The notes under the pieces were generated by a model. That model was not told where the DNA came from. It was given only the letters and a program-made list of their open reading frames with translations, and ran no database searches. This document shows, in pieces, positions 35,926 to 55,158 of a DNA stretch of 64,000 nucleotides. The stretch lies in NCBI GenBank assembly GCA_007376385.1, contig VMGC01000001.1:320001-384000 (forward strand). The letters run 5' to 3'. Every line of letters begins with the position of its first letter. Position 1 is the first letter of the stretch. Both the position numbers and the translations under genes were made by a program. Source of the DNA: Parcubacteria group bacterium Gr01-1014_8. GTDB taxonomy: Bacteria > Patescibacteriota > Minisyncoccia > Phycocordibacterales > UBA2100.

Positions 35926-36647
35926 GCGCTGTTCAGAGTGCGACGGTGTGTGGCGTATTGTCACTTGTGTTGGCGATTCTTTTCCCCATGCGAACTTTCG
36001 CGGGCTACGCTGAAAGTGCGTATTACTCGCAGTCGACCTACTACTCGCAGTCGACCTACTACTCGCAGTCGACCTACTATTCACAGGGAACATATGTGAC
36101 GACGTTTAGCAATAACGCGACGGCGGGAACTAATTTCACCGTCGCGGGCACGATTAATAAAGGTTCCGGTTCATTCGTCATCGACCATCCGCTCGATCCA
36201 AAAAATAAGCTGCTCTATCACTCGTTCGTTGAATCTCCTGACGTGAAGAATTTCTACGACGGTATAGCAACGCTCGACACAAAGGGCGAAGCAGTCATTC
36301 GGCTTCCCGCGTATTTTATGGCACTCAACAAAGAATTTCGGTACCAACTAAAACCCATTGGCGGGCCGCAGCCTGATCTGCACATTAAGGATGAAATCTC
36401 AGGAAATCGCTTTACGATTGCGGGTGGCGGGCCACGCGGGCGCGTATCGTGGCAGGTCACGGGGATCCGTCATGATCCGTACATCGAAGCGAATCCTATC
36501 GAGGTCGAGGTAAAAAAAGGTACAGATCCCGAGAAAAGCGTCTTCGTGCTCTATGGAGGGTTTTTGCACGAGGACATTTATCCGCAGACGATCCAACCCG
36601 CGATATCTACATATATGAGAAAGATACTTAGTTTGTTCGGCAATTGA
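35916..36647 (+). CDS. Secreted protein, paralog 3 of 3 with (STYYSQ)x4 tandem repeat and shared C-terminal domain
   Basis: Signal peptide. AYYSQSTYYSQSTYYSQSTYYSQGTY is a perfect 18-nt tandem repeat at 36031-36084. The C-terminus is GSGSFVIDHPLDPKNKLLYHSFVESPDVKNFYDG...VSWQVTGIRHDP. Confidence 0.6.
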   Translation: MQMSAVQSATVCGVLSLVLAILFPMRTFAGYAESAYYSQSTYYSQSTYYSQSTYYSQGTYVTTFSNNATAGTNFTVAGTINKGSGSFVIDHPLDPKNKLLYHSFVESPDVKNFYDGIATLDTKGEAVIRLPAYFMALNKEFRYQLKPIGGPQPDLHIKDEISGNRFTIAGGGPRGRVSWQVTGIRHDPYIEANPIEVEVKKGTDPEKSVFVLYGGFLHEDIYPQTIQPAISTYMRKILSLFGN

Positions 36648-40127: not shown

Positions 40128-41636
40128 TCATCGGACTTCCAACAACCATGACAGTGCGTTATTCGCGTACGCGTCGCATGCGTCTAGCTCTTCGAATCCA
40201 AGAGCCTTGCAAATGACGTCGTTCTTGAAGCCCGCAAATTCACGCCAGTGTGTCGCACGCATAAAAAGAGCTCCTAGAAGGCAATTTTGTTGGTCGTTCG
40301 ATCCTGGGCCCATCTGACATTTTTCTACTACTTCTGAGTCAGTGAGATTCAGCCATGGGAGAGCGGTGTTGAATCCGATGCCAGTGAAGCACTTATCCCT
40401 GAATCGTGATGGGGCGCGGAGGCATCCCTTGATCGACTCTTCGCTGAAATAACCAGGGCTCCAAACGGTGGATTGATTCAAGTAACAGATCTCAAGCATT
40501 GGATCGTCTCCAGCAAGTTCGAGGGCATCGCACGGAAAATCAGGCCGTGTTTTATCGAGCCATGTTGTCGTATGTCCGCGTACGCCGAATCCAAGGGTGA
40601 CGAATACATTTTCCATGAATGCGCCGTGATAGCACATCTTTTTCCCACGTTCGTACGTGACAAGATCGCGGCACTTTTGCAGCGACAAGGGAAGGTCATA
40701 ATTGTGATACACCATGAGCCCATGGCCGATGACGTGCTCGCAGAAGATGCCTCGCAGCGAGTCAGCATTCTCTTTTAAACACCCCGCCGCATACTTTTTT
40801 ACGGTCTCATCGTCTCCGACATTTCCAAGTGATGATTCGATGACACCGTGGTAAAAACCGAATTGGCATCTTGTGTCTATCATCTGTTCATCGAGTATTG
40901 AGAGGCCGTTCAGCGCGTATGCGATACGGCCTAAAAAGTGTGCCTCCGAATGACACTCTCCCACCGCTACCTGCGAACCTGGATTATCCGGACGCTGTGA
41001 AGGATCCATCGAATCCTTGACCAGTTCATCGAGCATTTTTTCGTATCCGAACACGCGCATCCAATATTCGAGTTCAGCGTCAGTCCTGCTCACCTCTATC
41101 ATATTCAATTTTTCCAACACCGATACTCCAGATCTCGGAAAAAATCTGAAATAGAAATGCATCAGCGACGCATGAAATTTTCGAGCAGGAGATAGCGCCC
41201 CATAACGAGGCAGCTCGGATGGATCTCCGCTCCCCGAATCCTTGACTAGTACCGTACCTGAACGTTCCGGGTCCATGTGGTCATGAAAATTCCACGTTCC
41301 TGCTTGTTTGAATTTAAAGCGGAATGATGCGTCTTGCAGCAGTTCGTGGCAAGAATCGAATCCTTTATACGCGTCAGTGCCGCACTCACGGATATCCGAC
41401 CCGGGATATTGTGTATGCGTGGGATGTACGTCAGATGCAATCCAATGAGGTTCGGTGTCTTCATTCACGAAAAGGACGCTTTCTCCTTGGACTATCTCAA
41501 CCTGCGACGGTTCAAAACCGCTCGCCGTCATGCGAATCGTAGTGTATGTAGTTTCTGCCGAGAGTGTCTGCGGCAGTGCGCAAAGAATTGATAGCAGGAC
41601 GAGAGATGCGTTGGAAGCTGCTGTTTTTTTTGTCAT
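40128..41636 (-). CDS. Exported Cys/His-rich family member P4 with N-terminal His-rich cupredoxin-like domain
   Basis: Signal peptide. N-terminal domain TIRMTASGFEPSQVEIVQGESVLFVNED...WNFHDHMDPERSGTVLV, then the family motifs ECHSEAHFLG, RCQFGFYHGV, FCEHVIGHGL and MCYHGAFMEN. Confidence 0.65.
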   Translation of the reverse strand: MTKKTAASNASLVLLSILCALPQTLSAETTYTTIRMTASGFEPSQVEIVQGESVLFVNEDTEPHWIASDVHPTHTQYPGSDIRECGTDAYKGFDSCHELLQDASFRFKFKQAGTWNFHDHMDPERSGTVLVKDSGSGDPSELPRYGALSPARKFHASLMHFYFRFFPRSGVSVLEKLNMIEVSRTDAELEYWMRVFGYEKMLDELVKDSMDPSQRPDNPGSQVAVGECHSEAHFLGRIAYALNGLSILDEQMIDTRCQFGFYHGVIESSLGNVGDDETVKKYAAGCLKENADSLRGIFCEHVIGHGLMVYHNYDLPLSLQKCRDLVTYERGKKMCYHGAFMENVFVTLGFGVRGHTTTWLDKTRPDFPCDALELAGDDPMLEICYLNQSTVWSPGYFSEESIKGCLRAPSRFRDKCFTGIGFNTALPWLNLTDSEVVEKCQMGPGSNDQQNCLLGALFMRATHWREFAGFKNDVICKALGFEELDACDAYANNALSWLLEVR

Positions 41637-41664
41637 CGAACCCTAGTATAGCGGAAGAAGTTTT

Positions 41665-43245
41665 TCAGGCTACTTCGCGTTTTCTGATGATGAGGAACAC
41701 GATCGAGAGGATGGGAAGTATGAGCACATATTCTCCTAGAAGTGAGTACAGGGTTTTCGTGTCTTTGAGCGGCACTGATGCTGCGAGTATAGAAGGAGCT
41801 GAGTCAGAGCGCATCTCCACTTTTCCGCGGTTTGTGACGATGGAAGATGCCAGCCCGTTTCCTGCGATAGCTATGTAGCGATCATTTTCGACCGCACGTA
41901 CCTTTCCTAGGGAAAGTACGAGGTTGTCTACCAGATGCGATCCATGGAACCACGCCTGTCCGGCTGGATTTACGAATACCCGTGCTCCGCCCTGGGCAAG
42001 TTTCTGGTACAGATTTGGCGAGAGAATATCCGAACAGAAAAGCGCTCCGACTTCTGTTCCGTTGATATGTGCAGGGAACAGTTTTGTTCCTGAAGCAACG
42101 GAACGTTCCCTCATTGTGCTCTGCTCTGCATCAGACACACCAATAAGGCGGAGCAGCATGGCAAAGAGCCAGGGCGTATATTCTCCCTGTGGCACCAAGA
42201 ATATCTTCCGGTATGTTTCAGGCATCAAGGTGCCGTTTTCGTACATACGCATCTGGACGTATCTTTCAGAACCCGTTCTCACCGGACCTGAGTCAATGAA
42301 TGTAACGGCGTGATCGGGAAAAACTAACTTCGCGAATTCAGTCGGGTCTTCGTTACTATGAACGAAAAAATCTGTCGCTTCCGGAAAGACAATGATATCC
42401 GGCGGCTCATTTTCTTTTGCCCATATTCGTATGTATTCTGCGACTTCGCGTGCATGTTTTCGCTTGACCTCTAACGAATACAGCGAGGTGACAGGCATGC
42501 TTGTTGAAACGAGTGCGACACGCACCGATCCAGATTCATTTTGAAAAGTCCAACTCGGAAGAGAATAGGCTCTATCAAGAGCCGCAAGAGTCAACGCTCC
42601 GGAGAGGATAAGTGCGAACACGAGCCCTCGTTTTCTCGCGTTTTCATACTGAAAAATTACGTGATACAGAGAAAAGCCGAGAAAGACCGCAAGAAAGGTC
42701 AGTATGTATATGCCGCCAATGGAAGCGGATCGAAGAAAAGGAGAAAAATTAGTAAGAGAATATCCGAGCATCGTAGGTGAGAAGTGCGGGCCGGAAAATG
42801 AAAGGTCGCGTGCTGTGAGTATGGCAAATCCCCACATTTGCGCGTATTGCAATACTGTCCAAAGAGAAGCGGCAAGCAGTGCGGCATAGAAACCTGAGCG
42901 CTTGGATCGGACAAAGCCAGCCGCAAAGAGTGAGAAAAAGACGGCGAGGACGAGAGTGACCATGAGCCATGAGAACCCTACGAATATGATCCCTTTCCAC
43001 GGAGGAGAACCAGTCCAGTCGAGTGGCAACACGTCCCAGAACCATGCTATGGCAGTACCGCTGTAGGCAAAGCCAAAGAGAAGTCCAAGTATTGACGCAT
43101 CTCGGTATTGTTTCTCTTGCAGGCGGTGCAATACGTGAGCGAAGGGAATGAGTCCGAATACGGATACCAGCCATATGGACGGGAACAGTATTCCCGATGC
43201 AGCGATAACGCCTGAGAATATTGCAAGCAAACCAAAGACTACCAT
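41665..43245 (-). CDS. lnt: Apolipoprotein N-acyltransferase
   Basis: About 7 N-terminal TM helices, a C-terminal CN-hydrolase domain with FPEA (Glu), Lys, and GALFCSDI (catalytic Cys), then a terminal TM helix; 526 aa. Confidence 0.7.
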   Translation of the reverse strand: MVVFGLLAIFSGVIAASGILFPSIWLVSVFGLIPFAHVLHRLQEKQYRDASILGLLFGFAYSGTAIAWFWDVLPLDWTGSPPWKGIIFVGFSWLMVTLVLAVFFSLFAAGFVRSKRSGFYAALLAASLWTVLQYAQMWGFAILTARDLSFSGPHFSPTMLGYSLTNFSPFLRSASIGGIYILTFLAVFLGFSLYHVIFQYENARKRGLVFALILSGALTLAALDRAYSLPSWTFQNESGSVRVALVSTSMPVTSLYSLEVKRKHAREVAEYIRIWAKENEPPDIIVFPEATDFFVHSNEDPTEFAKLVFPDHAVTFIDSGPVRTGSERYVQMRMYENGTLMPETYRKIFLVPQGEYTPWLFAMLLRLIGVSDAEQSTMRERSVASGTKLFPAHINGTEVGALFCSDILSPNLYQKLAQGGARVFVNPAGQAWFHGSHLVDNLVLSLGKVRAVENDRYIAIAGNGLASSIVTNRGKVEMRSDSAPSILAASVPLKDTKTLYSLLGEYVLILPILSIVFLIIRKREVA

Positions 43246-44114
43246 CGTAAAGATCCGCGATAATCAGCGAGTCGGATGGAAAAGACGATATGCAGGATCG
43301 CCCAGATATAAAAGAAGAGCGGAGGGAATACATACGCGAGTACGATAGAACCCCACGCGGTATATGCAAATAGCGCATACAGAGCAAAAACAATGGCATG
43401 GATCGCAAGCATATCCTTCACATATGCACTTTGACGGTCAGGCTTGCTTCCGAATCGAAAATAAAAGTGCACGTACCAGCATACGTAATGCAGCAGAATG
43501 ACCGAGCCGGTGAGTTTTGTCGATGAAACTTGAATGTCAAAAAACCACAACGCAAATAGTCCTGCGGTGATAAGCAAAAGATACGCACTCAGTGCATCAG
43601 GACGGTATGTTCCGATCGCAATGCTCGCGACATAGGGAACTAGCAACACGATCGCGAGCATGACAAGAGACGAAGAGAATGTGGCTCCCAACATATATCT
43701 TGAGATAAGAGCTGTGAAAAGAAGCACTGGCGGCAACTGTTCAAGAGCGCGAGAGAGAGAACGTTCCTTCCCGAAGAGCGTCACTTCATCCTGAAAATGA
43801 TGTATGAAAAACACTACAGAAGCGACGAGAGCAAACCATGCTACTTGATCCGTTAGAATGGCAAGTGTGAACAGTGCAGTTGTAAGAGTAACGAATGCAG
43901 CGACCCACGTCATCGTCATCTTACCGGCTTTCCATTGGTAGTAGTATGCCCCGAGAAAATGACCTTGGCCGAAGATACTGAATGCGAGTCCGACCTGCAG
44001 GGGAGAAAGGTAGTAAACCGCAAGCGCGACAATGGCGAGGCCAAGCGATTTTTGTATGACCAATTCACGTGTCATAGTAGAAGTATGGTAGCACATACTG
44101 GCATATGAAATCAC
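43239..44114 (-). CDS. Polytopic membrane protein of unknown function (~8 TM)
   Basis: 291-aa hydrophobic ORF overlapping the lnt start by 7 nt. No motif recognised. Confidence 0.45.
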   Translation of the reverse strand: MISYASMCYHTSTMTRELVIQKSLGLAIVALAVYYLSPLQVGLAFSIFGQGHFLGAYYYQWKAGKMTMTWVAAFVTLTTALFTLAILTDQVAWFALVASVVFFIHHFQDEVTLFGKERSLSRALEQLPPVLLFTALISRYMLGATFSSSLVMLAIVLLVPYVASIAIGTYRPDALSAYLLLITAGLFALWFFDIQVSSTKLTGSVILLHYVCWYVHFYFRFGSKPDRQSAYVKDMLAIHAIVFALYALFAYTAWGSIVLAYVFPPLFFYIWAILHIVFSIRLADYRGSLRW

Positions 44115-45304
44115 ATCTTATTTTGATCGTGGGAGGCATAGGGCTATTTTTGCTTGGTATTTTTTTCATAGTCTCTATGCCAGTAGGTGCAATCGTCGTC
44201 GAAGACGTCGTTGAAGATCTAGGGGAATGTCTCCACGAGAATCAGGCAGAATTAGAGAGTTTTCCATGCGTGAGGGAGAAAATACAGTCGCTTCTTCTCG
44301 AATTGCCTGCGCATGAGATCATGCGTGCGGTTGAAGCGTCGTTTCCATATCAGTGTCATGCTGTTGGTCATATTCTCGGGCAAGAAACGTACAAGATGCT
44401 CGGCTCAGTGGAAAGCGCCTTCGGAGCATGCTCTCCTGCCTCGTGCGTTCACGCGTGCACACACGGAGTTGTCGGGGAAGTCTTTCTCTCTACACCCGGG
44501 ATAGGAGGATTGCCAGAAGAATGGAGGCATCCGAACATCGACTTGATACGCTCGGAAGGCTCTTTGCTTTGCAGGGATAGAACGACATGTCATGCGGTCG
44601 GTCATGTACTTTTTTTACTTTTTTTTGAGGACCTCTCAGGTGCGCTTTCTATGTGTGATGAAATCGCAGGAGATGAGGCATTTACATGTCACAGCGGCAT
44701 ATTTATGGAGAATGGTGGCGGGACATTTGCGCGCACGATCCCTGGCTTAGATGTTGAGCGGGAAGAGTATCGTGACCCCACTGATCTTCTTTCTCCCTGC
44801 AATACGGTCGCTGACCGCTACAAAAAGGCATGCTTTAGATTCTTGTATATAAATCAATATGACTATTTTAAGGATCACGGCATTACTGATCCGCATACGA
44901 TCTTCAACACGCAGACGGATGCCTGCGGTATTGTCACGGATCGTTTGCAGCGCAGAGCATGTTTCAGAAGCGTGGGCTGGTCTCTCCAGGGGATGCGCCG
45001 ACCGCTTCTTTCCGCGCACGTGCTCTGCAACTCGCTGACTGTCATAGAGGATCGCAGTGCATGTCTTTTTGGCGTGAGCGATTCATTCACGGATCAGGGT
45101 ATGAGCATCTCGGAAACCGGAGGGGCGTGCAGAGCAGTAAACAATGAGCAAGGCAAACGCGCATGTTATGGAGGAATTTTCATGGCACTTTCAGACAGAG
45201 AACCTGGTCTTCTCCCAAGCGTGTGCGATGGCGCTTCTGACAGCGCATGTCAAATGTCGTTGCAGGAATTTTTAGCGAATCCAGACAGTCGTGATTCTAT
45301 TTAG
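44105..45304 (+). CDS. Exported Cys/His-rich protein, family member P5
   Basis: TM anchor. Motifs YQCHAVGHILG, SCVHACTHGVVGE, TCHAVGHVLF and TCHSGIFMENGG. Confidence 0.6.
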   Translation: MKSHLILIVGGIGLFLLGIFFIVSMPVGAIVVEDVVEDLGECLHENQAELESFPCVREKIQSLLLELPAHEIMRAVEASFPYQCHAVGHILGQETYKMLGSVESAFGACSPASCVHACTHGVVGEVFLSTPGIGGLPEEWRHPNIDLIRSEGSLLCRDRTTCHAVGHVLFLLFFEDLSGALSMCDEIAGDEAFTCHSGIFMENGGGTFARTIPGLDVEREEYRDPTDLLSPCNTVADRYKKACFRFLYINQYDYFKDHGITDPHTIFNTQTDACGIVTDRLQRRACFRSVGWSLQGMRRPLLSAHVLCNSLTVIEDRSACLFGVSDSFTDQGMSISETGGACRAVNNEQGKRACYGGIFMALSDREPGLLPSVCDGASDSACQMSLQEFLANPDSRDSI

Positions 45305-45330
45305 ACACTATTTACTCAATTGTTGGCACA

Positions 45331-46446
45331 ATGAGTCACATGATACAGCGTCTCACAGTGGGTGTGCTCGTGGCTGTTCTATCAGCGTTAGGAAGTGTCT
45401 TCTGGTTTCTGTACAACGAACCCCCTCATCATTGTCTGAAAGAAGAAAACGTACGGTGGTGCTTCATACACGAGGCGCAAGCTATTGCCGCAATAGAGGG
45501 AGCACAGAAGGCATATTCATATGTGCACGATGTCATTAAAAAATATAGCGATTATAAGACCGAACACCTGGCACTTCATTATGTTGGTATGAAGGCATAT
45601 GACGAAGCGGGATCAGTAGACAAGGCTTTTACGCTCATCTATGGGGAAGATCAGATGGCTGATGATTCGATATATTACAGCGGTTTTCAACACGGGCTCT
45701 TCGAGCGATATTTTGAGGTGAATGGAGCACAGACACCGACTGTGCTCGGGAATGAGACGTGTCACACATATGCTTCATCGGAGTCCCTCGATGAGTTCAC
45801 CAGTACCCGCACGCGAGTGCTCGCAGCGGAATGCTATCACGCGATCGGTCACGCGATAATGTTCATATCTGACAATAATGTTGAGGCATCACTTTCGGCA
45901 TGTGACGCGTTCCCTCATCAATGGGAGCAACGGTGGTGTTACCATGGAGTGTTCATGGAGAATTATTATCTACACATTCCCGAATATCATCTCGGCGTCG
46001 CACGGCCGGATGCCGAAGGGCTTTCTGTAGTCGAGCTTTGCATGCGCGTTGGGGAAAAATATCGGGGAGAGTGCAGTTATTTCGTGGGCTGGGTGTATAT
46101 GCAAATGCATCCAAACGACTTTGCCGGAGCATTTTCCGAATGCGCGATGTTTCCGCAGAGTGATGCAAGGATATGTATCGCACGCGTGGGACGTTTTTTT
46201 GTAGCCGCATCGTCCGCAGGCGATCTCTCGGGCATGATCGCAACGTGTGAGAAGGCGCACCCATTCCTGCGTGAATGTTTGTACGGAACAGCCATCGGAT
46301 TGAACCAGGGAGTGGGTTTGTTTGAATATGTCAATAAAGGCAAAGGGCTATGTGATGTTCTTGAGGACGATATGCACGCGGATTGTGAAAACGCCCTGAC
46401 ACGGTCTCATGAAAGTCTTGCGCGGAAAGTAATAACCGAACTCTGA
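45331..46446 (+). CDS. Exported Cys/His-rich protein, family member P6
   Basis: TM anchor. Motifs ECYHAIGHAIMF and WCYHGVFMENYY. Confidence 0.6.
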   Translation: MSHMIQRLTVGVLVAVLSALGSVFWFLYNEPPHHCLKEENVRWCFIHEAQAIAAIEGAQKAYSYVHDVIKKYSDYKTEHLALHYVGMKAYDEAGSVDKAFTLIYGEDQMADDSIYYSGFQHGLFERYFEVNGAQTPTVLGNETCHTYASSESLDEFTSTRTRVLAAECYHAIGHAIMFISDNNVEASLSACDAFPHQWEQRWCYHGVFMENYYLHIPEYHLGVARPDAEGLSVVELCMRVGEKYRGECSYFVGWVYMQMHPNDFAGAFSECAMFPQSDARICIARVGRFFVAASSAGDLSGMIATCEKAHPFLRECLYGTAIGLNQGVGLFEYVNKGKGLCDVLEDDMHADCENALTRSHESLARKVITEL

Positions 46447-46460
46447 CTGGAGGGTCCCTT

Positions 46461-46901
46461 TTAGGGTCGTGGGAACGGCTCACCGATAAGGAGGTAGGAG
46501 AGCACCAATTGTCCTTGTGGGTTGATATATACAGAACCGTATCCATGTGTACCCGGGACGACGTCGTCAATCGTAGCCGGGGTTGTCGAACTAGTGCCAA
46601 CGACCGCGCCGTTCTCGATTATCACATCCCTGCGTTCTACGAAGAAGTCAGGGGCGAGGGAATACAAAGTCGGGACATCCAGGTTAACGCTGGGTATCCG
46701 CGTAATCCCTACCAATTTCCGATGCTCGAGGTCTATAGAGTACACGGTGAGAAATTCCGAGAATGCTAAAAAGCCGAAGATCTTCTCTGGCGCTGTCATG
46801 GCGCTAAGACGTTCGCGATAAACATAGAGTTCTTCGCCGGCGATGATGGTCGCGGATAGGACAAGGGATAGACAGCCGAGAATGATTGGAAGTCTGTTCA
46901 T
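46461..46901 (-). CDS. Small secreted protein of unknown function
   Basis: Signal peptide MNRLPIILGCLSLVLSATIIA plus about 125 aa. ATGA overlap with the upstream gene. Confidence 0.4.
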   Translation of the reverse strand: MNRLPIILGCLSLVLSATIIAGEELYVYRERLSAMTAPEKIFGFLAFSEFLTVYSIDLEHRKLVGITRIPSVNLDVPTLYSLAPDFFVERRDVIIENGAVVGTSSTTPATIDDVVPGTHGYGSVYINPQGQLVLSYLLIGEPFPRP

Positions 46902-47320
46902 GATCCTATACGTTTGGTGATGGTTATGTCCGTAGCGCGGAGCGTCCCCATTGTCTGCAGGTCTCTATTCACGCGTACGGTTGCTCCGGGCGGTAAGGGG
47001 ATCATTTTTCCTATTATGAATCTCTTCTCTTCCATGATACCCGCTCTGAACACATATTCTACAGATGACCACCTCGTGGCGTCATCGTATACGAATTCTA
47101 CTGTAACTCGCGGTTCTGCAATCGAGTAGCTACTCAGAGTTGAAACACGAAGCACGTGATCGGCGAGACGGTGATCAGTTACGATCCCATAATATGTACG
47201 CTCAGCATGCATTCCGTCTCGTGGTAGTGTAGGCATGAAAACATTAACGCCGAAAGACAATACGTATCCGCAGGCTCCCCCAAGAATTATCGGCAGCGCG
47301 TATCTTAGGGCGATATGCAT
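46898..47320 (-). CDS. Small signal-anchored protein of unknown function
   Basis: Start set at MHIALRYALPIILGG (47320). The longer tracked ORF (to 47515) would read through an intergenic repeat copy. Confidence 0.4.
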   Translation of the reverse strand: MHIALRYALPIILGGACGYVLSFGVNVFMPTLPRDGMHAERTYYGIVTDHRLADHVLRVSTLSSYSIAEPRVTVEFVYDDATRWSSVEYVFRAGIMEEKRFIIGKMIPLPPGATVRVNRDLQTMGTLRATDITITKRIGS

Positions 47321-47342
47321 CGAGTAATTATAGCTCGTAGTA

Positions 47343-47450
47343 AAGGTTCCTCGGAGCAAGCTCCGAGGTATTATGGAGCTCGCTTCGCTCGCGCAGTCTC
47401 GCAGCAGAGCTGCGAGATATTGAACCTGTGTTTGCTCCTCGGCTCGGAAA
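47343..47450 (-). repeat. Intergenic repeat family, L-part copy C (inverted, with 46-nt internal insertion)
   Basis: The reverse complement gives atttccgagccgaggagcaaacacaggttcaata[46-nt insert]cctcggagcttgctccgaggaaccttt, matching 52281-52334. Contains the perfect hairpin cctcggagc-ttg-ctccgagg. Confidence 0.6.
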
Positions 47451-47571
47451 TGCAAAAGTGCTCTTTTGCGTTTCTCTCGCAACGCTCGCAAATAAAGCGC
47501 ATGAGGGCGACCCATTTATGCGTATCGTTCTTCGCATCGTATTTGCTTGACATAGGCGTGCAGAATATGAT

Positions 47572-49182
47572 GTGCACAACATGCAACGCATCAGTGCTTT
47601 ATTGCTGGTACTTGTACTCGGCTCTTATGCAATGTATTACGCCATTCCGGAGGACGTATCCAACGTATCATGTGATAACTGCAATCTTGTGATCATCACG
47701 TTGGATAGCGTGAGGTTGGATCACATGGCTTTGTATGGTTATGAACGCTCGACAACCCCGAACATCGACAACTTCGGACAGGGCGCGTTGGTATTCACTA
47801 ATTATTTTTCGACGAGTTATTTGACGCCTGTTAGTGCATTTTCAATGCTCACTGGCAGATATCCTTTCAGCAATGGCGTCGTCAGTTTTTATTCATATTT
47901 GCGCGACGATGTTACTTCACTTGCGGAGACCCTACAGGCGGAGGGGTATCGTGCTGCGGCGTTCGGTTCTTCTCCAGAGTACGAACTCTTTCCTTCACTC
48001 AAAGAAAGCGGGATGCGAGGTTTCGATGTGTATAAAACTTTTACGTCTGATGATCCAGATATATTGCCCAGTCGTTCGCAGGTTCCAGTAGAGGAAGCAA
48101 TTGCCTGGGCCGAAGATTCTTCGCAGCCGTTTTTTTTATGGATGCCGATCGGCGCTGCGCACTGGCCATATGATCCATTTGAAGAACGAACTTTTACCGA
48201 TGCAGGTTACGACGGGTTTCTGCGGAATTTACCTTCCGGTTTTAAGACCTATAGTCAGATATATAAGGGGACATATTATCCGATACGTGAGGGGACAATG
48301 CCGAATGTCCGCCAGTCTCTGCATCTGCCGGAATATTCTTCCCGACATACCGAAGAGGTCGATCTGCTCCTTGAGTGGGGACCATCTGCAACTACCTCAT
48401 TGAATGCGGAGGACCTTGAATACGTTCGAGGTCGCTACGACGACGGACTGCTATTCATGGATCGCATCGTCGGCGACATAATTGCAACTCTCGAAGAAAA
48501 ACATTTGGATCGGGATACCATCATAATTATTGAATCGGTGCATGGTGAAGAATTGGGCGAGCGCGGTGTCATTGGGCACTATGATATTGATGAAGCAACG
48601 ATACGAAGTCCGTTGATGATCAAGGTGCCTGGAGCGCGTTCGCGCCGCATCGACGCTCTTATCTCTGGAGTCGACATCTATCCGACCGCGCTAAGTATGT
48701 TGGGAATCGATATGGCTATGCGCGATGGGATAGACTTTGTACCATTTCTTTCCGGAGTGACCTCAACAGAACCTCGGCAAGAAGTATTCCTTACGCGCAC
48801 GCCACTTTTCGAGACGCTCTATACGGTCGAAGGGGATAGCATGACATCTGCTCGTTACGAGCGATTGCGCTCTGAGGATGCGCGCATGCATTATCACGAT
48901 AGCGCGATCCGTACGAACGAATGGAAGCTCATTCATCGCACTAGCAGAGTGGCGTTGTCACGTTATTCATGGTGGCAGTATCTCACTGGGAATATTGAAA
49001 ATATCCCAGAATACGAGCTGTATTTTCTTCTTGACGATCCTCTTGAGACAACGAATCTGTATAACGAGCGTCCTGACATTGCGACGCCATTGCAGGAGCG
49101 CTTGAGCGCGTGGGAGAATACGCAGGCGAGTGATCGCAATCTATTAAAAATGCAAGATACGATACGGCAGGAATACTTTTAA
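47572..49182 (+). CDS. Sulfatase-family (alkaline-phosphatase superfamily) enzyme with Thr at nucleophile position; membrane-anchored
   Basis: N-terminal TM. LVIITLDSVRLDH (metal-binding Asp), SYLTPVSAFSMLTGRYP in place of C/S-x-P-x-R, FFLWMPIGAAHWPY and ESVHGEELGE. Confidence 0.65.
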   Translation: MHNMQRISALLLVLVLGSYAMYYAIPEDVSNVSCDNCNLVIITLDSVRLDHMALYGYERSTTPNIDNFGQGALVFTNYFSTSYLTPVSAFSMLTGRYPFSNGVVSFYSYLRDDVTSLAETLQAEGYRAAAFGSSPEYELFPSLKESGMRGFDVYKTFTSDDPDILPSRSQVPVEEAIAWAEDSSQPFFLWMPIGAAHWPYDPFEERTFTDAGYDGFLRNLPSGFKTYSQIYKGTYYPIREGTMPNVRQSLHLPEYSSRHTEEVDLLLEWGPSATTSLNAEDLEYVRGRYDDGLLFMDRIVGDIIATLEEKHLDRDTIIIIESVHGEELGERGVIGHYDIDEATIRSPLMIKVPGARSRRIDALISGVDIYPTALSMLGIDMAMRDGIDFVPFLSGVTSTEPRQEVFLTRTPLFETLYTVEGDSMTSARYERLRSEDARMHYHDSAIRTNEWKLIHRTSRVALSRYSWWQYLTGNIENIPEYELYFLLDDPLETTNLYNERPDIATPLQERLSAWENTQASDRNLLKMQDTIRQEYF

Positions 49183-49190
49183 ATGATCTT

Positions 49191-50612
49191 ATGATGTTGC
49201 TCTTTCCATCTAAAAAACATGCATTTGTTGTGGTGGGGTGTATCGTGATGCTCGCGGTCGCGACATTTTTCATACTTCGAGGAGGAGACGATCTCTCGTG
49301 CAGAGAGTGTAATGTAATTATCATTGGCGTCGACACACTCCGGGCGGACGCGTTGCATAGTCTTGGATATGAGCGTGAGACCACTCCGACCCTTGATGCG
49401 CTCGCCAATAAAGGTGTCATTTTCTCACAGGCAATCTCTGCATCGAGCTGGACGGTGCCATCATTCATGTCGATCTTTACGGGTATGTATCCCTCGGCGC
49501 ACAAGGTGACAAATAAATTCGTAAAATTTTCAAAAGACGCGAAGATACTCACAAATCTTAAAGATATTGATCCTGAGATCGAAACGTTCGCGATGATCAT
49601 GAAGAACGCAGGCTACGCAACCGGAGGCTTTACGGGGGATGCAGGAGTCTCAGCACAGTTCGGATACGGACAGGGGTATGATATATATACCGACGAAAAA
49701 ACCTTCGGCGGATTTGAGAATAGCGAGCAACATGCCTTGAAATGGCTGGATACTCTGGACTCCAAACAAAAGTTCTTTATGTTCTTCCATGGTTATGATC
49801 TGCATGGGCAACATGATCTAGATGACGATTCGTCCAGGGAATTTGTTCCTGAATATTCAGGGACGTACAAAGGCACGAAAGAAGAAGAGGCAATTATCCG
49901 TGAACAGCAACTGGAATGGGGAGGATTGTCACTCACGCCGGGGGACGTAGCATTCTGGCGGGGCATATATGACAGCAAGATCAAAGACGCAGATACGCGG
50001 CTTGCCAGTTTTATCGCGGAACTCGAAAAGAGGGGTCTTCTCAAAAATACGGTCATAGTTTTAGTGTCTGACCACGGAGAAGAGTTTTATGAACATAAAG
50101 GCATTGATCACGGACACTCTTTATATGATGAACAGGTTCATGTGCCTTTGATACTCATCGTTCCGGGTATGACCGGCGGAAGAAGGGTCGATGCGCAAGT
50201 AAGTACAATGGATATCGCTCCTTCAATTCTCGATATCCTCAACATCGCACCGAGCGCAGCTTTCGAAGAACAAACCGCTTTGAGACGCAGTCTTGTGCCG
50301 TATATTCTTGGATTGGAATTTCGCGGGTACGATATTTTTACCGAGACGGATTATCGCAACTCACGGCATCTTCGTTCAGTGCGTACCGCAGACGGGTGGA
50401 AGTACATACTCGATCTCGAAAGTAAACACGAAGAGCTTTATGACCTTCGCAATGATCCAGGTGAGTTAAAGGATTTAGCATCGAGCGAGGTAAAAAAGCG
50501 TGACGAGACTAGAAGAAGACTTCTCACTCACATGCGGGATGAACTTCATCAGACTTTGGATCAAGAAATACGCACTGATTGTCTCCCGGTATATGTTGGA
50601 GAGTGCGAGTAG
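49191..50612 (+). CDS. Sulfatase-family (alkaline-phosphatase superfamily) enzyme, second copy, Thr at nucleophile position
   Basis: N-terminal TM. IIIGVDTLRAD, SSWTVPSFMSIFTGMYP, VSDHGEEFYEHKGIDHGHSLYDEQVHVPLILIVPG. Confidence 0.65.
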   Translation: MMLLFPSKKHAFVVVGCIVMLAVATFFILRGGDDLSCRECNVIIIGVDTLRADALHSLGYERETTPTLDALANKGVIFSQAISASSWTVPSFMSIFTGMYPSAHKVTNKFVKFSKDAKILTNLKDIDPEIETFAMIMKNAGYATGGFTGDAGVSAQFGYGQGYDIYTDEKTFGGFENSEQHALKWLDTLDSKQKFFMFFHGYDLHGQHDLDDDSSREFVPEYSGTYKGTKEEEAIIREQQLEWGGLSLTPGDVAFWRGIYDSKIKDADTRLASFIAELEKRGLLKNTVIVLVSDHGEEFYEHKGIDHGHSLYDEQVHVPLILIVPGMTGGRRVDAQVSTMDIAPSILDILNIAPSAAFEEQTALRRSLVPYILGLEFRGYDIFTETDYRNSRHLRSVRTADGWKYILDLESKHEELYDLRNDPGELKDLASSEVKKRDETRRRLLTHMRDELHQTLDQEIRTDCLPVYVGECE

Positions 50613-50665
50613 TACTATCGATAGGGAAAATATATCTATTATCTGACAGATGATACTATGCGTTC

Positions 50666-51058
50666 ATGCGAGGGACGCAGGTTTTCGATAATATGTCGCT
50701 GACATATATTCTTGTTTCCGTACTCCTCTTTGTATTGGTAGTAACTTCTGTTCTGTATCTAAAGAAAGGGGATGTCCAGGATGTAAGGAAGCAAATTATT
50801 CTTGAGCAACAAGGATTTCAGCCGAGTGAGCTCACTGTCAAAAAAGGAAGCACGGTAACATTCACTACGACCGCCGCGCGACAGTTCTGGCCGGCTTCAA
50901 ATTTGCATCCAAGTCATGACATCTATCCTGATTTTGACGCGAAGCGGCCTCTTGAGAGCGATGAAGTATGGAGCTTCACTTTCAATACAGCAGGCGATTG
51001 GCCATTTCATGATCACATCCGATCATACTATGTTGGTGTCGTACACGTAATCGAGTAA
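50666..51058 (+). CDS. Membrane-anchored standalone cupredoxin-like His-rich domain protein
   Basis: TM anchor, then QGFQPSELTVKKGSTVTFTTT...WPASNLHPSHDIYPDFD...WSFTFNTAGDWPFHDHIRSYYVGVVHV. Same domain as the N-termini of P4 and P8. Confidence 0.55.
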   Translation: MRGTQVFDNMSLTYILVSVLLFVLVVTSVLYLKKGDVQDVRKQIILEQQGFQPSELTVKKGSTVTFTTTAARQFWPASNLHPSHDIYPDFDAKRPLESDEVWSFTFNTAGDWPFHDHIRSYYVGVVHVIE

Positions 51059-51072
51059 AGTGGAAGCTGTAT

Positions 51073-52272
51073 ATGCGTTTGTATATGAAGATAAGTGTCC
51101 TCTCAGCATTCTTGTTTGTGGGGCTCGCAGTGTTTTTCTTTATGCCGGGTACTCGGATGGCGCGCGCGGCAGAGGCCTGTTCCACCGGGCACGAAAAACA
51201 AGATGAGCAGATACAATGCTGGCTCGATATCATGCGTGCGGAAATGAGAGATGATGGAATAGGAGCCGCAATGAAGGTCTTTTCGTACGTATACAACACG
51301 TACCCCACATTCTCAGCTACAGGCTGTCATGTGCACGCGCATCGCGTGGGCGATATGGCGTATTATGAATTTTATCTTGCGAATCCTGATCTTGATGCTC
51401 TGGAATTTCCGCAAGAGACGGCAAGTTGCGGGTATGGCTTCTATCACGGCTTTTTCGAGCATCTTATTCAGGATAATCCCGATCCGTCATACATAACGTC
51501 CACATGCACATATTTTCATGAGCGGCTCGGGCACATGCTCGGCGACATGAGACAGATCTGCTATCACGGGAGCGGGCATGGACTTATGCTTGCGAGAACA
51601 GAAGAAGTAACGAACGATGATTGGGGGAATGCACAGGCGTTCGCAACAAAGCCGCTCGAACAGTGCGAGAAACTTTCTGAGGCGACAGTGCGTGAAAAAG
51701 AAGAATGTCGTGAGGGGATCTATAATGTGCTTGTTGATTGGATGGAGGGGAAAGAGTATGGATTTGTCTACAACGACATCCACCCGTTCGCAGTTTGCGA
51801 TGAGCTTCAAAATTACGATTGGAAAAAGGCATGTTACTACGAAATGTCCCAGAAATTGGACCGAGTATCGGCACGTGACCCTGTGCAGCTTGTCAAAATT
51901 ATTGCTCCGATACAGGACCCGAAATTACAACGCACCGCATTGTTGGTAGGTATCGCGGGAATGATGCAGTCAGTTGCAAACACCAATGCGTACGAATCCT
52001 TCATGCGTACGTGTGCGCAATTGGGCGAGAAGTCCAGGAACGACTGTGCCATCGGCGTCATTTCCGGGCTCTTCGAGCACGGGCTTCCTCAGGAAGAGTA
52101 TGTGAATGCCATACGCGCATGTCGTCTCGAGGAAATTGGATCATCCGGGATGGCTGCTTCGTGCTGGAAAGAGGTTTCGAATAAATTAATACGTTTTTAT
52201 ACCCCCCAGCGTGTGCAAGAGATCTGTCCAGAATTTCCAGAGGAATACCGATCTCTGTGCAGCAAGAAATGA
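51073..52272 (+). CDS. Exported Cys/His-rich protein, family member P7
   Basis: Motifs GCHVHAHRVG, SCGYGFYHGFFEH, ICYHGSGHGLML and ECREGIYNVL. Confidence 0.65.
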   Translation: MRLYMKISVLSAFLFVGLAVFFFMPGTRMARAAEACSTGHEKQDEQIQCWLDIMRAEMRDDGIGAAMKVFSYVYNTYPTFSATGCHVHAHRVGDMAYYEFYLANPDLDALEFPQETASCGYGFYHGFFEHLIQDNPDPSYITSTCTYFHERLGHMLGDMRQICYHGSGHGLMLARTEEVTNDDWGNAQAFATKPLEQCEKLSEATVREKEECREGIYNVLVDWMEGKEYGFVYNDIHPFAVCDELQNYDWKKACYYEMSQKLDRVSARDPVQLVKIIAPIQDPKLQRTALLVGIAGMMQSVANTNAYESFMRTCAQLGEKSRNDCAIGVISGLFEHGLPQEEYVNAIRACRLEEIGSSGMAASCWKEVSNKLIRFYTPQRVQEICPEFPEEYRSLCSKK

Positions 52273-52280
52273 AGAGCCTC

Positions 52281-52467
52281 TTTTATTTCCGAGCCGAGGA
52301 GCAAACACAGGTTCAATACCTCGGAGCTTGCTCCGAGGAACCTTTATCTGTCGAGGATAGCAAGCGAAATGCGAAAGTGCAGGTTTCGCATTTCCGAGCG
52401 ACACAGACAGCAAAGGTTCAAAGCCCCGCGGCTTGCCTGCCTGTGCGATGCACGCAGACAGGCCGCG
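52281..52467 (+). repeat. Intergenic repeat element, most complete copy B (L-part 52281-52334 + R 52335-52467)
   Basis: R is identical to 16111-16243 apart from 1 nt. The L-part matches the inverted copy at 47343-47450. R overlaps the last 41 codons of the minus-strand gene P8. Confidence 0.75.
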
Positions 52468-53894
52468 GAATTTGGGACGCATAACCCTTCAACAAGCTGC
52501 GGGTCGGATGCCTTTGCAAATACGAGCACGATCTTTTGGCACTGCAGAAGCTCTTGCTCTAACGTAAATTGGCCGCAAAATGCAATGGAGTGCCGTGCGC
52601 CCTTTTCAGGTGTCTCACGATGGAAGAAACCCGACACAACGCCGAGAATGCATGCTGCCCATTCTTCTTGATCCATGAGTTGACTGCACTCTTTTGCCAG
52701 ATGCGTGAATTCTGGCTCACCGACGCGGCGCCGTACCTCGTCATTTATAAGCGCTTGCATTGATTCGAGCCGTGCTGCCTTTACGGGTATCTGTCTTAGT
52801 AACGAGAAACCGTCTTCAAGTGAGTATTTGTTGTGGCGGATGTATCCGACACCGATCTCTATGGCGCATCCCGTCCAATATTCTGGCACTGCCCTGCAAA
52901 CACCGAGGGGATCGTCATGCCTGAACGAGATCCCGTATTCACCGGAACCAAGAGCTATTGAGAGCGAATTGAATACGCCGGAAGCACACCGTGTTCTTTC
53001 CCACTCTGGTTGAATTGCGCTCTCGCATGAGAGGAGTGCGCTTTTCGCCATTTTGTATTCGTCACCCCACTTGGTTGAATCAATAGAGTCGAACAGTGCA
53101 TGTCCGATGCCGTGATAACACGCGCCGACAGCATTGTGCCGTGATGTTGGCGTTCCTAGATGTGTGCTATCTCGCATCTTTTCGCAGTAGGCAACGGTTT
53201 GAGCGACTCCCTCATCTCCTGTGTCGCGAAGGGCTTGTTCCATGAATCCATGATAGAAACCGAAATTGCAATACGTGGTTTCTATCCTGTCAGCGACAGC
53301 GCCTCCGGCTTTGTATAGTTGATATGTCTGTATGCCGATATAGTGCGAAACGTCGTGACAATTTCTCTGAAATAACGGATCCTCAGCATTCCACTTTTCG
53401 AAAGCGTCGAACACTGCGTCGAGTCCTCCTTTCTTAAGAATACGGTCTATTTCACCGTCCCAGCAGTAGGCTTTTATTGTGTCGGTCGAGGAGTCGAGAC
53501 ATGCTTCGACACTTTCTCCTTCATATCCTAGGACGATAATTCTTCCCTGCACCATTGGGTGCATATGATCGTGGAATGGCCAGACCCCTGCACGCGAAAA
53601 AGTAAATTCCCATGGATCACCGGGCTGAATCGCGTGTGTTGGGTCGAAATCCGAATAGCGTCCATGGGACGGATGAGAATCCGACGCAGGCCACGAATCT
53701 GATATCGATGAATTAACGAAGATGACCGTGTCACCTTTGTTGATAGTAAGCCTCTCAGGCGAGAATCCGGTATTGGTTCTTGTGATGGTGTATGTCTGCG
53801 GAGAAAGATATGCGTATGCCATTCCTGCAAGAACCGCGACAGCAAGAAAAATAACTGCCAAAAGCTTAACAGAAAGAGAAAAATGCGCGCGCAT
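52344..53894 (-). CDS. Exported Cys/His-rich family member P8 with N-terminal cupredoxin-like domain; C-terminal 41 aa encoded by repeat element R
   Basis: N-terminal domain TYTITRTNTGFSPERLTINKGDTVIFVNSS...WPASDSHPSHGRYSDFD...VWPFHDHMHPMVQGRIIV. Family motifs NCHDVSHYIG, YCNFGFYHGF, ACYHGIGHAL and RCASGVFNS. The stop codon lies inside R copy B. Confidence 0.65.
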   Translation of the reverse strand: MRAHFSLSVKLLAVIFLAVAVLAGMAYAYLSPQTYTITRTNTGFSPERLTINKGDTVIFVNSSISDSWPASDSHPSHGRYSDFDPTHAIQPGDPWEFTFSRAGVWPFHDHMHPMVQGRIIVLGYEGESVEACLDSSTDTIKAYCWDGEIDRILKKGGLDAVFDAFEKWNAEDPLFQRNCHDVSHYIGIQTYQLYKAGGAVADRIETTYCNFGFYHGFMEQALRDTGDEGVAQTVAYCEKMRDSTHLGTPTSRHNAVGACYHGIGHALFDSIDSTKWGDEYKMAKSALLSCESAIQPEWERTRCASGVFNSLSIALGSGEYGISFRHDDPLGVCRAVPEYWTGCAIEIGVGYIRHNKYSLEDGFSLLRQIPVKAARLESMQALINDEVRRRVGEPEFTHLAKECSQLMDQEEWAACILGVVSGFFHRETPEKGARHSIAFCGQFTLEQELLQCQKIVLVFAKASDPQLVEGLCVPNSAACLRASHRQASRGALNLCCLCRSEMRNLHFRISLAILDR

Positions 53895-53982: not shown

Positions 53983-55158
53983 ATGAAGTTCAGACTGAGT
54001 GTCTATATATGGCCTATTATCGCTGCGGCAGCGTTGCTCGGGGGCGCCTTTTTCTACGTTAATTTTTCCTCGCGTGCTGAAGCTGCAGCCATAGTCGAAA
54101 CATGTAAAAAGGAGCCAGACAACATGTTCTGTTACGAACGCGAAGTGCCGAAGCTGTATTCTTCTTACTCGATCCCGGAACTATTTGAATTCATCCGCGA
54201 GATCCGTCGTCTCGATCCGTCGTATCAGTTTTGCCATGTACTTGCGCATAAGCTCGGCGAAGAGGCCGTTGCAGAAGACCCGTCGCGCTGGCTGGATATG
54301 ATCCCTCTGAACCCGCGTGATGGAATGTGCAGCAACGGATTCATTCATGGCGTCATCGTAGGCAGGTTTCGCAATGACACGCTCGACAAGGAAACGCTCG
54401 AGAAAACGATACCTGATCTTGCGAGGGCGTGCGAACCGCGGGCGAACTGGTCTCCCAGTTCGTTGGACCAAGCGATTTGCTATCACGGCATGGGCCACCT
54501 TTTTATGTTCATAACGAACGCTGACATGCGGCTCTCGCTGGATACGTGCGCACGCATATCGCGAAGTGCAACTGGGGATTTTATGCGCGTCTGCCGAGAA
54601 GGCGTATTCATGCAAACATATCAGCCGCTTGAGCCGGACGATTTTGCTCTGCTAGAATTACTTCCTGAAAAACCGACGAAAGAAAATTACCGGCGCTTAT
54701 GCGCAGCGTACGCGAACGATCCAGAAGAAGGAGCGTGTCTTCGGGAAGCGTGGCCGTTCTTCCGCACCGACATTCTTAAAGGAACTGGTGCCATCAGTTT
54801 TTGCTCAGGACAACCAACCAAGGAGGAGGAAGAGATGTGCTACGAATCGGCTTCAACTATCATAGGAAGACAGCTTCTCGGGAACGATGAAAAAGCAAGT
54901 GCGGCGTGTGATGCTCTTCCTCAGAAATGGCAGAGCATATGCTACATTGCGGCTGCTCAAGCACTGCTGGAAGAAGATAGGGCGACGGGGAAGGCTGCAA
55001 TTTCTCTCTGCGAGAGAGGAAAGAATGGTGTTGCTGATACCTGCTTAAAGACACTTGCGATGCGAGCAAACTGGATATTTTCAAGCGGTGCAGCGGAAAA
55101 GGACGCATTTTGCGAGGCATTGCCGCGATTCAAGGAGGAGTGCGATCGGCGGCGCTAA
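53983..55158 (+). CDS. Exported Cys/His-rich protein, family member P9
   Basis: Motifs FCHVLAHKLG, MCSNGFIHGV, ICYHGMGHLF and VCREGVFMQT. Confidence 0.65.
   Translation: MKFRLSVYIWPIIAAAALLGGAFFYVNFSSRAEAAAIVETCKKEPDNMFCYEREVPKLYSSYSIPELFEFIREIRRLDPSYQFCHVLAHKLGEEAVAEDPSRWLDMIPLNPRDGMCSNGFIHGVIVGRFRNDTLDKETLEKTIPDLARACEPRANWSPSSLDQAICYHGMGHLFMFITNADMRLSLDTCARISRSATGDFMRVCREGVFMQTYQPLEPDDFALLELLPEKPTKENYRRLCAAYANDPEEGACLREAWPFFRTDILKGTGAISFCSGQPTKEEEEMCYESASTIIGRQLLGNDEKASAACDALPQKWQSICYIAAAQALLEEDRATGKAAISLCERGKNGVADTCLKTLAMRANWIFSSGAAEKDAFCEALPRFKEECDRRR

Follow-up and report, generated by a model that had tools for sequence, protein, structure and literature searches.

The window, meaning the whole 64,000-nucleotide stretch of DNA analyzed here, comes from Parcubacteria bacterium Gr01-1014_8, an ultra-small member of the candidate phyla radiation (CPR) represented by a metagenome-assembled genome. 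It contains three genes that encode a cupredoxin-like domain. In two of them, P4 and P8, this domain is fused to a large Cys/His-rich helical domain; in the third it stands alone behind a membrane anchor, immediately upstream of an unfused member of the Cys/His-rich family. NCBI has an "uncharacterized protein" of the same bacterium that matches the standalone protein with 100% identity, and the neighborhood consists of ordinary chromosomal genes, i.e., those for SecA, GatB, GAPDH, DAHP synthase, asparagine synthase, and envelope enzymes. The relevant features are as follows.

40128-41636, minus strand: P4, an open reading frame (ORF) of 502 amino acids (aa)
41238-41555, minus strand: cupredoxin-like domain of P4, residues 28-133 (Pfam Cupredoxin_1 and alignment), with HPTH at 41415-41426 and HDH at 41277-41285
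40128-41237, minus strand: C-terminal Cys/His-rich helical domain of P4 (hidden Markov model (HMM) of the family, E 3e-41)
50666-51058, plus strand: standalone gene for a membrane-anchored cupredoxin-like protein of 130 aa, with the domain at 50783-51055, HPSH at 50906-50917, and HDH at 51008-51016
51073-52272, plus strand: unfused member of the Cys/His-rich family (family HMM, E 4.6e-75)
52344-53894, minus strand: P8, an ORF of 516 aa
53523-53804, minus strand: cupredoxin-like domain of P8, residues 31-124, with a hydrophobic signal/anchor helix (residues 2-30) on its N-terminal side
53664-53675, minus strand: H74-P-S-H77 motif of P8 (conservation in fused homologues and translation checked)
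53565-53573, minus strand: H108-D109-H110 motif of P8, with D109 at the type 1 Cys position
52470-53519, minus strand: all-alpha Cys/His-rich domain of P8, residues 126-475, with invariant H180, H184, H215, H261, and H265 and conserved Cys pairs

An alignment of the three copies of the cupredoxin-like domain shows 32-37% identity and 30 invariant columns. A phmmer search with the P8 domain, covering the ORFs of the window in all six frames, matched the other two copies alone (E 9e-25 and 1.2e-18); the window therefore holds exactly three copies, one per protein, and their similarity is far beyond chance. A domain shared by P4, P8, and the standalone gene had been proposed in a preliminary description of this DNA, and the three ORFs lie where that description placed them. 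The motifs that it quoted are correct for P8 and the standalone protein, which both carry HPSH and HDH, but not entirely for P4, which carries HPTH and HDH and reads W-I-A-S at the W-P-A-S site (all translations were checked). Likewise, its characterization of the domain as Cys-less is accurate for the ligand positions, none of which is occupied by Cys, but P4 does contain two Cys (C85 and C96) inside a 13-residue loop insertion.

The domain is a genuine cupredoxin-fold module, as the preliminary description had suspected. The Pfam model PF13473 (Cupredoxin_1) scores 32.1 bits for P8 and 27.9 bits for P4, above its gathering cut-off of 27 bits; the standalone copy falls under the cut-off at 21.5 bits, yet is a clear homologue of the other two by phmmer. 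An AlphaFold2 model of P8 built from 54 homologues (predicted local distance difference test score (pLDDT) 91; predicted template modeling score (pTM) 0.88) comprises an N-terminal helix (residues 2-30), a beta-sandwich (34-122), and an all-helical domain (127-503). The corresponding model of the standalone protein (pLDDT 83.6) matches the solved cupredoxin 5fc9 in Foldseek with an E-value of 7e-8. The Greek-key beta-sandwich is superposable on solved cupredoxins, of which plastocyanin and amicyanin are nearest, with a similarity exceeding that to FtrB and EfeO.

Models dedicated to blue copper proteins gave scores well below their cut-offs: 14.3 and 12.8 bits against 21.2 for PF00127 (plastocyanin/azurin), 20.2 against 87.85 for TIGR02656, and 20.7 against 110.2 for TIGR02657 (the last two being plastocyanin/amicyanin equivalogs). 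The family also lacks the ligand set His-Cys-His-Met (or Gln/Leu) of such proteins. In profile alignments, Cys92 of amicyanin falls on the Asp of H-D-H, and the Cys of two canonical multi-cupredoxin proteins placed on the family HMM (P0114 and P0212) aligns with D109. Across 238 family domains in the HMM alignment, the type 1 Cys position is Asp, with Asn in 12 domains; the position of the canonical C-terminal His is mostly A/R/N/S, with His in 19 domains; and the Met position is mostly Y/F. With the Cys, C-terminal His, and Met positions all unmatched, the type 1 (blue) site has been dismantled. We rejected a classical electron carrier because the Cys ligand is missing.

Near-invariant instead are the segments W-P-A-S-[DN]-x-H-P-x-H, F-D, and H-D-H. 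The combination of the two His of H-P-x-H and the Asp of F-D with an intact HDH is present in 208 of the 238 sampled domains, and another 12 read HNH in its place. Conservation is also high among 54 fused homologues: H74 is kept in 53, H77 in 52, H108 in 54, D109 in 52, H110 in 52, and D84 in 52-54. The full motif is present in 142 of the 145 top representatives. At E <= 1e-30 the family comprises 457 clusters (50% identity), and the peptide WPAS[DN]xHPxH occurs in at least 570 species-level genomes, mostly of Patescibacteria. Literature searches for the motif or the family in CPR returned nothing specific. A minority of the motif records are labeled Gammaproteobacteria, Rubrobacter, Gaiellaceae, Rokubacteria, Verrucomicrobia, Methanosarcinales, or Aenigmatarchaeota, and loci with such non-CPR labels include L016, L022, L036, L049, L071, L075, and L078; these could be mis-binned or mislabeled CPR contigs, or could reflect true spread outside Patescibacteria.

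Two residues of the motif are lost together in a few domains. H77 and H110 are both absent from P0024, P0026, and the first domain of P0105, which are all of the domains that lack H77. The same three domains keep H108 and D109 in every case and H74 in two (P0024 has Tyr). Given that P0024 and P0026 both belong to Adlerbacteria, this coupled loss may represent just two independent events.

The conserved residues invite comparison with multicopper oxidases, whose H-P-x-H-x-H motif resembles at its start the H-P-x-H of the family. H77, H108, and H110 would lie at positions that these enzymes use for type 2/3 copper. When a profile of the C-terminal segment was searched against the PDB, the best match was ascorbate oxidase (1aoz), with an E-value of 9.9e-6 composed of two short stretches with individual E-values of 0.03 and 0.9. 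The family consensus FtFdkaGvWkFHDHL aligns with FVADNPGVWAFHCHI of this enzyme (F-V-A-D-N-P-G-V-W-A-F-H-C-H-I, residues 495-513), and the segment also aligns with the Y-H-G-H strand of its domain 1. With the H-C-H strand of ascorbate oxidase as the best counterpart of H-D-H, the His on either side of the Asp may equate to type 2/3 ligands. The first His of H-P-x-H (H74) is probably the retained N-terminal ligand, judging from collinearity with canonical small cupredoxins. In a consistent reading, H74 and D109 may thus lie at vestigial type 1 positions, with H77, H108, and H110 at type 2/3 positions, and the coupled loss of H77 and H110 fits this division. In multicopper oxidases, a His-Cys-His motif bridges the type 1 copper and a trinuclear cluster that is itself coordinated by His (PMC10306062). 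The preliminary description had supposed that clusters of His replace Cys-His-Met; the canonical ligands are indeed gone, but HPSH and HDH are not a simple replacement, as H74 is probably a retained ligand, an Asp occupies the Cys site, and the other His flank these two positions. Nor is a Cys-less or His-only site on this fold without precedent, although the preliminary description considered that the latter would be unusual: FtrB and EfeO are Cys-less (PMC11966278), and the trinuclear site is coordinated by His (PMC10306062).

The second conserved element is the helical partner. In P4 and P8 it makes up the C-terminal ~350 residues, and its family is represented nine times within 18 kb of the window; every member starts with a hydrophobic N-terminal segment (assessed by eye). 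Family members have five invariant His, in C-H-x3-H, G-F-x-H-G, and C-x-H-G-x-G-H, together with seven or eight conserved Cys pairs (14-20 Cys per protein). The paralogue at 53983-55158 has five His in all, which by eye lie in these invariant motifs. Neither Pfam nor the PDB yielded a relative of the helical domain.

The functional link between the cupredoxin domain and the helical family, first suggested in the preliminary description on the basis of fusion, is real and conserved well beyond the source genome. About 55 fused homologues of ~490 aa were found. The standalone gene and the helical-family gene that starts 14 nucleotides past it represent the split form of this fusion, and at four independent standalone loci elsewhere a helical-family gene lies directly downstream in every case (E 1e-54 to 1e-70), often overlapping. 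The helical domain is present in 72 of the 80 best related genome loci. Among 117 occurrences of the cupredoxin domain in those loci, 78 are fused to the helical domain and 10 are directly adjacent to it; this fusion frequency is inflated, because the query by which the loci were ranked for similarity derived mainly from fused proteins.

The cupredoxin domain also keeps other company. It forms the C-terminal part of proteins of 310-380 aa with an N-terminal Ig-like domain (P0108, P0110, P0112, P0113, and P0115), it occurs in tandem copies, and it is found with fn3 and peptidoglycan-binding domains (P0109). The Ig-like domain has an invariant His as its first residue after the signal peptide and reads A-H-G-x-G...D-G-Y-L-I-D-I-G-Y-S-P (AHGxGxxxE..DGYLIDIGYSP..RFDFLLY). 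It bears a hydrophobic helix C-terminal to it, and two hydrophobic, transmembrane-looking stretches part it from the cupredoxin domain in the fusions. It is absent from the window, but is encoded by a separate neighboring gene in 11 of the 80 loci and in L001. Examples of the domain are:

L012, 3353-3895
L080, 3412-3903
L060, 4261-4746
L001, 9557-10072

This domain has no match in Pfam and only filamin-like noise in the PDB, and a suspected kinship with YcnI, CopC, or YtkA is unsupported. That its N-terminal His might form a copper site resembling a histidine brace is a guess only.

Pfam scans of the genes flanking the three copies in the window identified Lnt, 'sulfatases' of the AP superfamily, an Ig-like surface protein, and family paralogues. 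The standalone gene is directly preceded, on its own strand, by two genes for membrane-anchored 'Sulfatase' (PF00884) proteins, at 47572-49182 and 49191-50612 (plus strand); by eye, they carry a T-x-P-S-type motif in place of the sulfatase C/S-x-P-x-R, which suggests that they may encode envelope enzymes of the phosphotransferase type and not sulfatases. The neighbor on this side of the standalone gene is not conserved in other genomes. Genes resembling VKOR and DsbA/thioredoxin recur near related loci, at four loci each (motifs recognized by eye; e.g., L026 3349-3858 and L074 2007-2747), which is consistent with dedicated disulfide formation for Cys-rich extracytoplasmic proteins. From the N-terminal hydrophobic helices, the Cys-rich partners, and these VKOR- and DsbA-like neighbors, we infer that the domain is located outside the cytoplasm.

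Taken together, these observations point to a membrane-tethered, extracytoplasmic, non-blue metal site, probably for copper, that is built on a cupredoxin scaffold and serves a helical protein with five conserved His; we give this model about an even chance of being correct. The H-P-x-H motif, the F-D pair, and H-D-H would form a type-2-like site for a divalent metal, most likely copper. In such a site, an Asp would stand at the former Cys position and the flanking His would occupy the places where multicopper oxidases and nitrite reductases hold inter-domain copper. The cupredoxin module would be anchored outside the cytoplasmic membrane by its N-terminal signal/anchor helix. Its partner, fused to it in P4 and P8 or encoded by the adjacent gene, would be an all-helical protein stapled by disulfides and equipped with a five-His site of its own. 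The role of the cupredoxin domain would be accessory, either capturing a metal and handing it over to the helical partner or holding a metal beside it. Copper would be the most likely metal given the ancestry of the fold, the motif resembling that of multicopper oxidases, the precedents of FtrB and Cys-to-Asp azurins (PMC11966278), and the company of the N-terminal-His domain. Metal binding, the identity of the metal, the geometry of the site, and the direction of transfer are all things that we infer from sequences and predicted structures. Classical long-range electron transfer of the blue-copper kind by this domain is unlikely.

Several results weigh against this model. A profile of the N-terminal segment (W-P-A-S..H-P-x-H..F-D) found zero matches in the PDB, and the match to ascorbate oxidase is short and split. 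The AlphaFold2 model draws W-P-A-S as a short strand where the strand of the canonical His would sit, and leaves the H-P-x-H loop unstructured (pLDDT ~69); the mapping of H74 from predicted secondary structure thus disagrees with that from sequence collinearity. Likewise, seven of the nine helical paralogues in the window have no cupredoxin partner, and homologues that lack H77 and H110 still hold the five His of the helical domain. The inflated fusion frequency is to be counted here too, as is the lack of any copper transporter, chaperone, or copper enzyme found near the genes in the window. As the five His are kept in proteins without a cupredoxin domain or without H77 and H110, the partner does not depend on the cupredoxin site, and this autonomy suggests that the cupredoxin domain is accessory and does not supply one half of a site that both must share.

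The same observations bear on the alternatives. It is possible, though rather unlikely, that the domain binds no metal and that its His and Asp form a surface for protein docking or pH sensing, with the domain acting as a structural adaptor for the helical partner or the cell envelope. Many cupredoxin-fold domains no longer bind metal, and both the association with fn3 and peptidoglycan-binding modules (P0109) and the retention of the partner's five His where H77 and H110 are gone would accord with an adaptor. Such a role would not readily account for four His and two Asp that are near-invariant over hundreds of divergent lineages, as is typical of metal ligation, nor for the coincidence of the motif sites with copper-ligand positions of related proteins or the association with another domain that, once mature, begins with an invariant His. 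Alternatively, the domain may be a free-standing carrier of a type 2/3 'half-site' of multicopper oxidases that, with the five His of the helical partner, with a second cupredoxin copy, or by self-association, would complete a multinuclear copper center at the interface and constitute a new kind of oxidase. The likeness of H-P-x-H and H-D-H to the pattern of multicopper oxidases (PMC10306062) speaks for such a center, as do the conserved fusion and adjacency, and the very short linker and pTM of 0.88 imply a fixed arrangement of the two domains. We nevertheless hold a composite center to be doubtful, since the five His are conserved both in paralogues that lack a cupredoxin domain and in fusions that lack H77 and H110.

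Two further alternatives draw on characterized cupredoxins. An iron-related module similar to FtrB or EfeO, in which Cu(II) held by Asp and His oxidizes Fe(II) for uptake or the site itself binds iron, is as doubtful as the composite center. Brucella FtrB is a Cys-less cupredoxin, as is EfeO; it requires D118 for Cu2+ binding and has a conserved D118-x-x-H121 pair (PMC11966278). This D-x-x-H pattern is not kept here, with a His at the +3 position in only 19 of the 238 domains; Pfam scans of the flanking genes detected no Ftr1/EfeU permease, P19, or EfeB; the conserved partner, a novel helical protein, is not the same; and the fold is closer to plastocyanin-type proteins than to FtrB and EfeO. 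On account of the ligand pattern and gene context we rejected membership of the FtrB/EfeO group, which stays a functional analogy. Least credible, and in our judgment very improbable, is that these proteins are functional electron-transfer cupredoxins ('plastocyanins') that donate electrons to the helical domain or to a nitrite reductase. This is what the cupredoxin fold, its nearest structures, and the name 'plastocyanin' given to several homologues by the Joint Genome Institute would suggest, and 'putative cupredoxins' of CPR have been proposed as electron donors of NirK (PMC5581439). The ligand-position Cys is missing, however, in all three copies and in 220 of the 238 family domains; the C-terminal His and Met positions are unconserved and the scores for PF00127 and TIGR02656/02657 are far under their cut-offs; and no nirK or respiratory genes were present among the window ORFs scanned.

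Some further observations concern the window itself. Over its last ~44 codons (after residue 472), P8 diverges from P0012, a database protein that is identical to it elsewhere and that ends with the C-x10-C usual in the family. A repeat of ~110 nucleotides, which contains a perfect palindrome (CCTCGGAGC..GCTCCGAGG), is present in two intergenic regions as inverted copies at 47341-47458 and 52278-52346, with a degenerate copy at about 52370-52440; in the 52.3-52.48 kb region, it adjoins P8 at the 3' end or extends into it. Because the tail diverges and runs into this repeat, the true 3' end of P8 is uncertain, which leaves the cupredoxin domain unaffected. The end of the gene could have been altered by the repeat, acting as a small mobile or terminator-like element, or the divergence could be an assembly difference; a tRNA was rejected, as a tRNA gene search found none. 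Elsewhere, a giant ORF of 4051 aa at 20598-32753 (plus strand) has no Pfam domain at E <= 0.001, and its region has a G+C content of 0.54-0.56 (0.46-0.51 elsewhere) and a reversed GC skew. An 18-nucleotide unit is repeated three times in tandem at 36021-36086 (30-nucleotide overlapping matches, 90-100% identity), inside the ORF 35916-36647.

The fold, its Pfam family, and the existence of Cys-less cupredoxins were already known, and NCBI calls some members of this family "cupredoxin domain-containing". What is new is a large and sharply defined subfamily whose H-P-x-H / H-D-H signature is carried by no solved structure, and its conserved partnership with an uncharacterized, disulfide-rich helical family with five His. 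A third new point is that "plastocyanin" labels in CPR genomes can be misleading. The labels in use are "plastocyanin" and "cupredoxin domain-containing protein", and the former is probably wrong for this family. Given that no blue-copper carrier is possible as the family stands, metabolic reconstructions built on such labels need re-checking; this extends to the CPR cupredoxins invoked as carriers for NirK (PMC5581439), if those belong to the family. More broadly, the domain and its partners point to an uncharacterized form of cell-surface metal handling in hundreds of Patescibacteria. Should the composite center prove true, it would represent a new class of copper oxidase, extracytoplasmic and common among CPR bacteria, and possibly a present-day analogue of the single-domain proteins from which multicopper oxidases have been postulated to descend.

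The family can be set apart from each of the known systems that it resembles. Compared to small blue copper proteins (plastocyanin, amicyanin, and the purple cupredoxin 5fc9 of Nitrosopumilus), it has Asp for Cys and an unconserved C-terminal His and Met, adds a W-P-A-S segment of ~7 residues and an H-P-x-H that are absent from every PDB sequence, and is tethered to the membrane and joined to a large helical domain. Among the 'Cup-II' cupredoxins FtrB and EfeO (N-terminal domain; 8vuk and 7wgu), FtrB has D118-x-x-H121 (PMC11966278) and an acidic Fe(II)-binding cluster of Glu (E84, E86, and E93); the former is not reproduced in the present family, and the latter is probably not reproduced either. 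The family instead has a His on each side of the Asp, the +3 His is missing in most members, the partner protein differs, and the flanking genes scanned include no Ftr/Efe transport genes. With ascorbate oxidase (1aoz, residues 495-513) the family has G-V-W-x-F-H-x-H-[LI] in common. Relative to multicopper oxidases and copper nitrite reductases, it has H-D-H (H-N-H in 12 domains) rather than a His-Cys-His with the type 1 Cys, and in place of two or more domains with HxHG, HxH, HxxHxH, and HCHxxxHxxxxM it has only H-P-x-H and H-x-H; the domain might be a single-domain version of the inter-domain site of multicopper oxidases. Finally, the engineered Cys-to-Asp azurins still bind Cu2+ (as cited in PMC11966278). 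An Asp-for-Cys site flanked by two His would be the natural counterpart of these proteins, and azurin Cys112Asp (type 2 or 'type zero' copper) its laboratory equivalent, with the difference that the azurin variant retains both canonical His, whereas the present family has lost the C-terminal His and gained two flanking ones.

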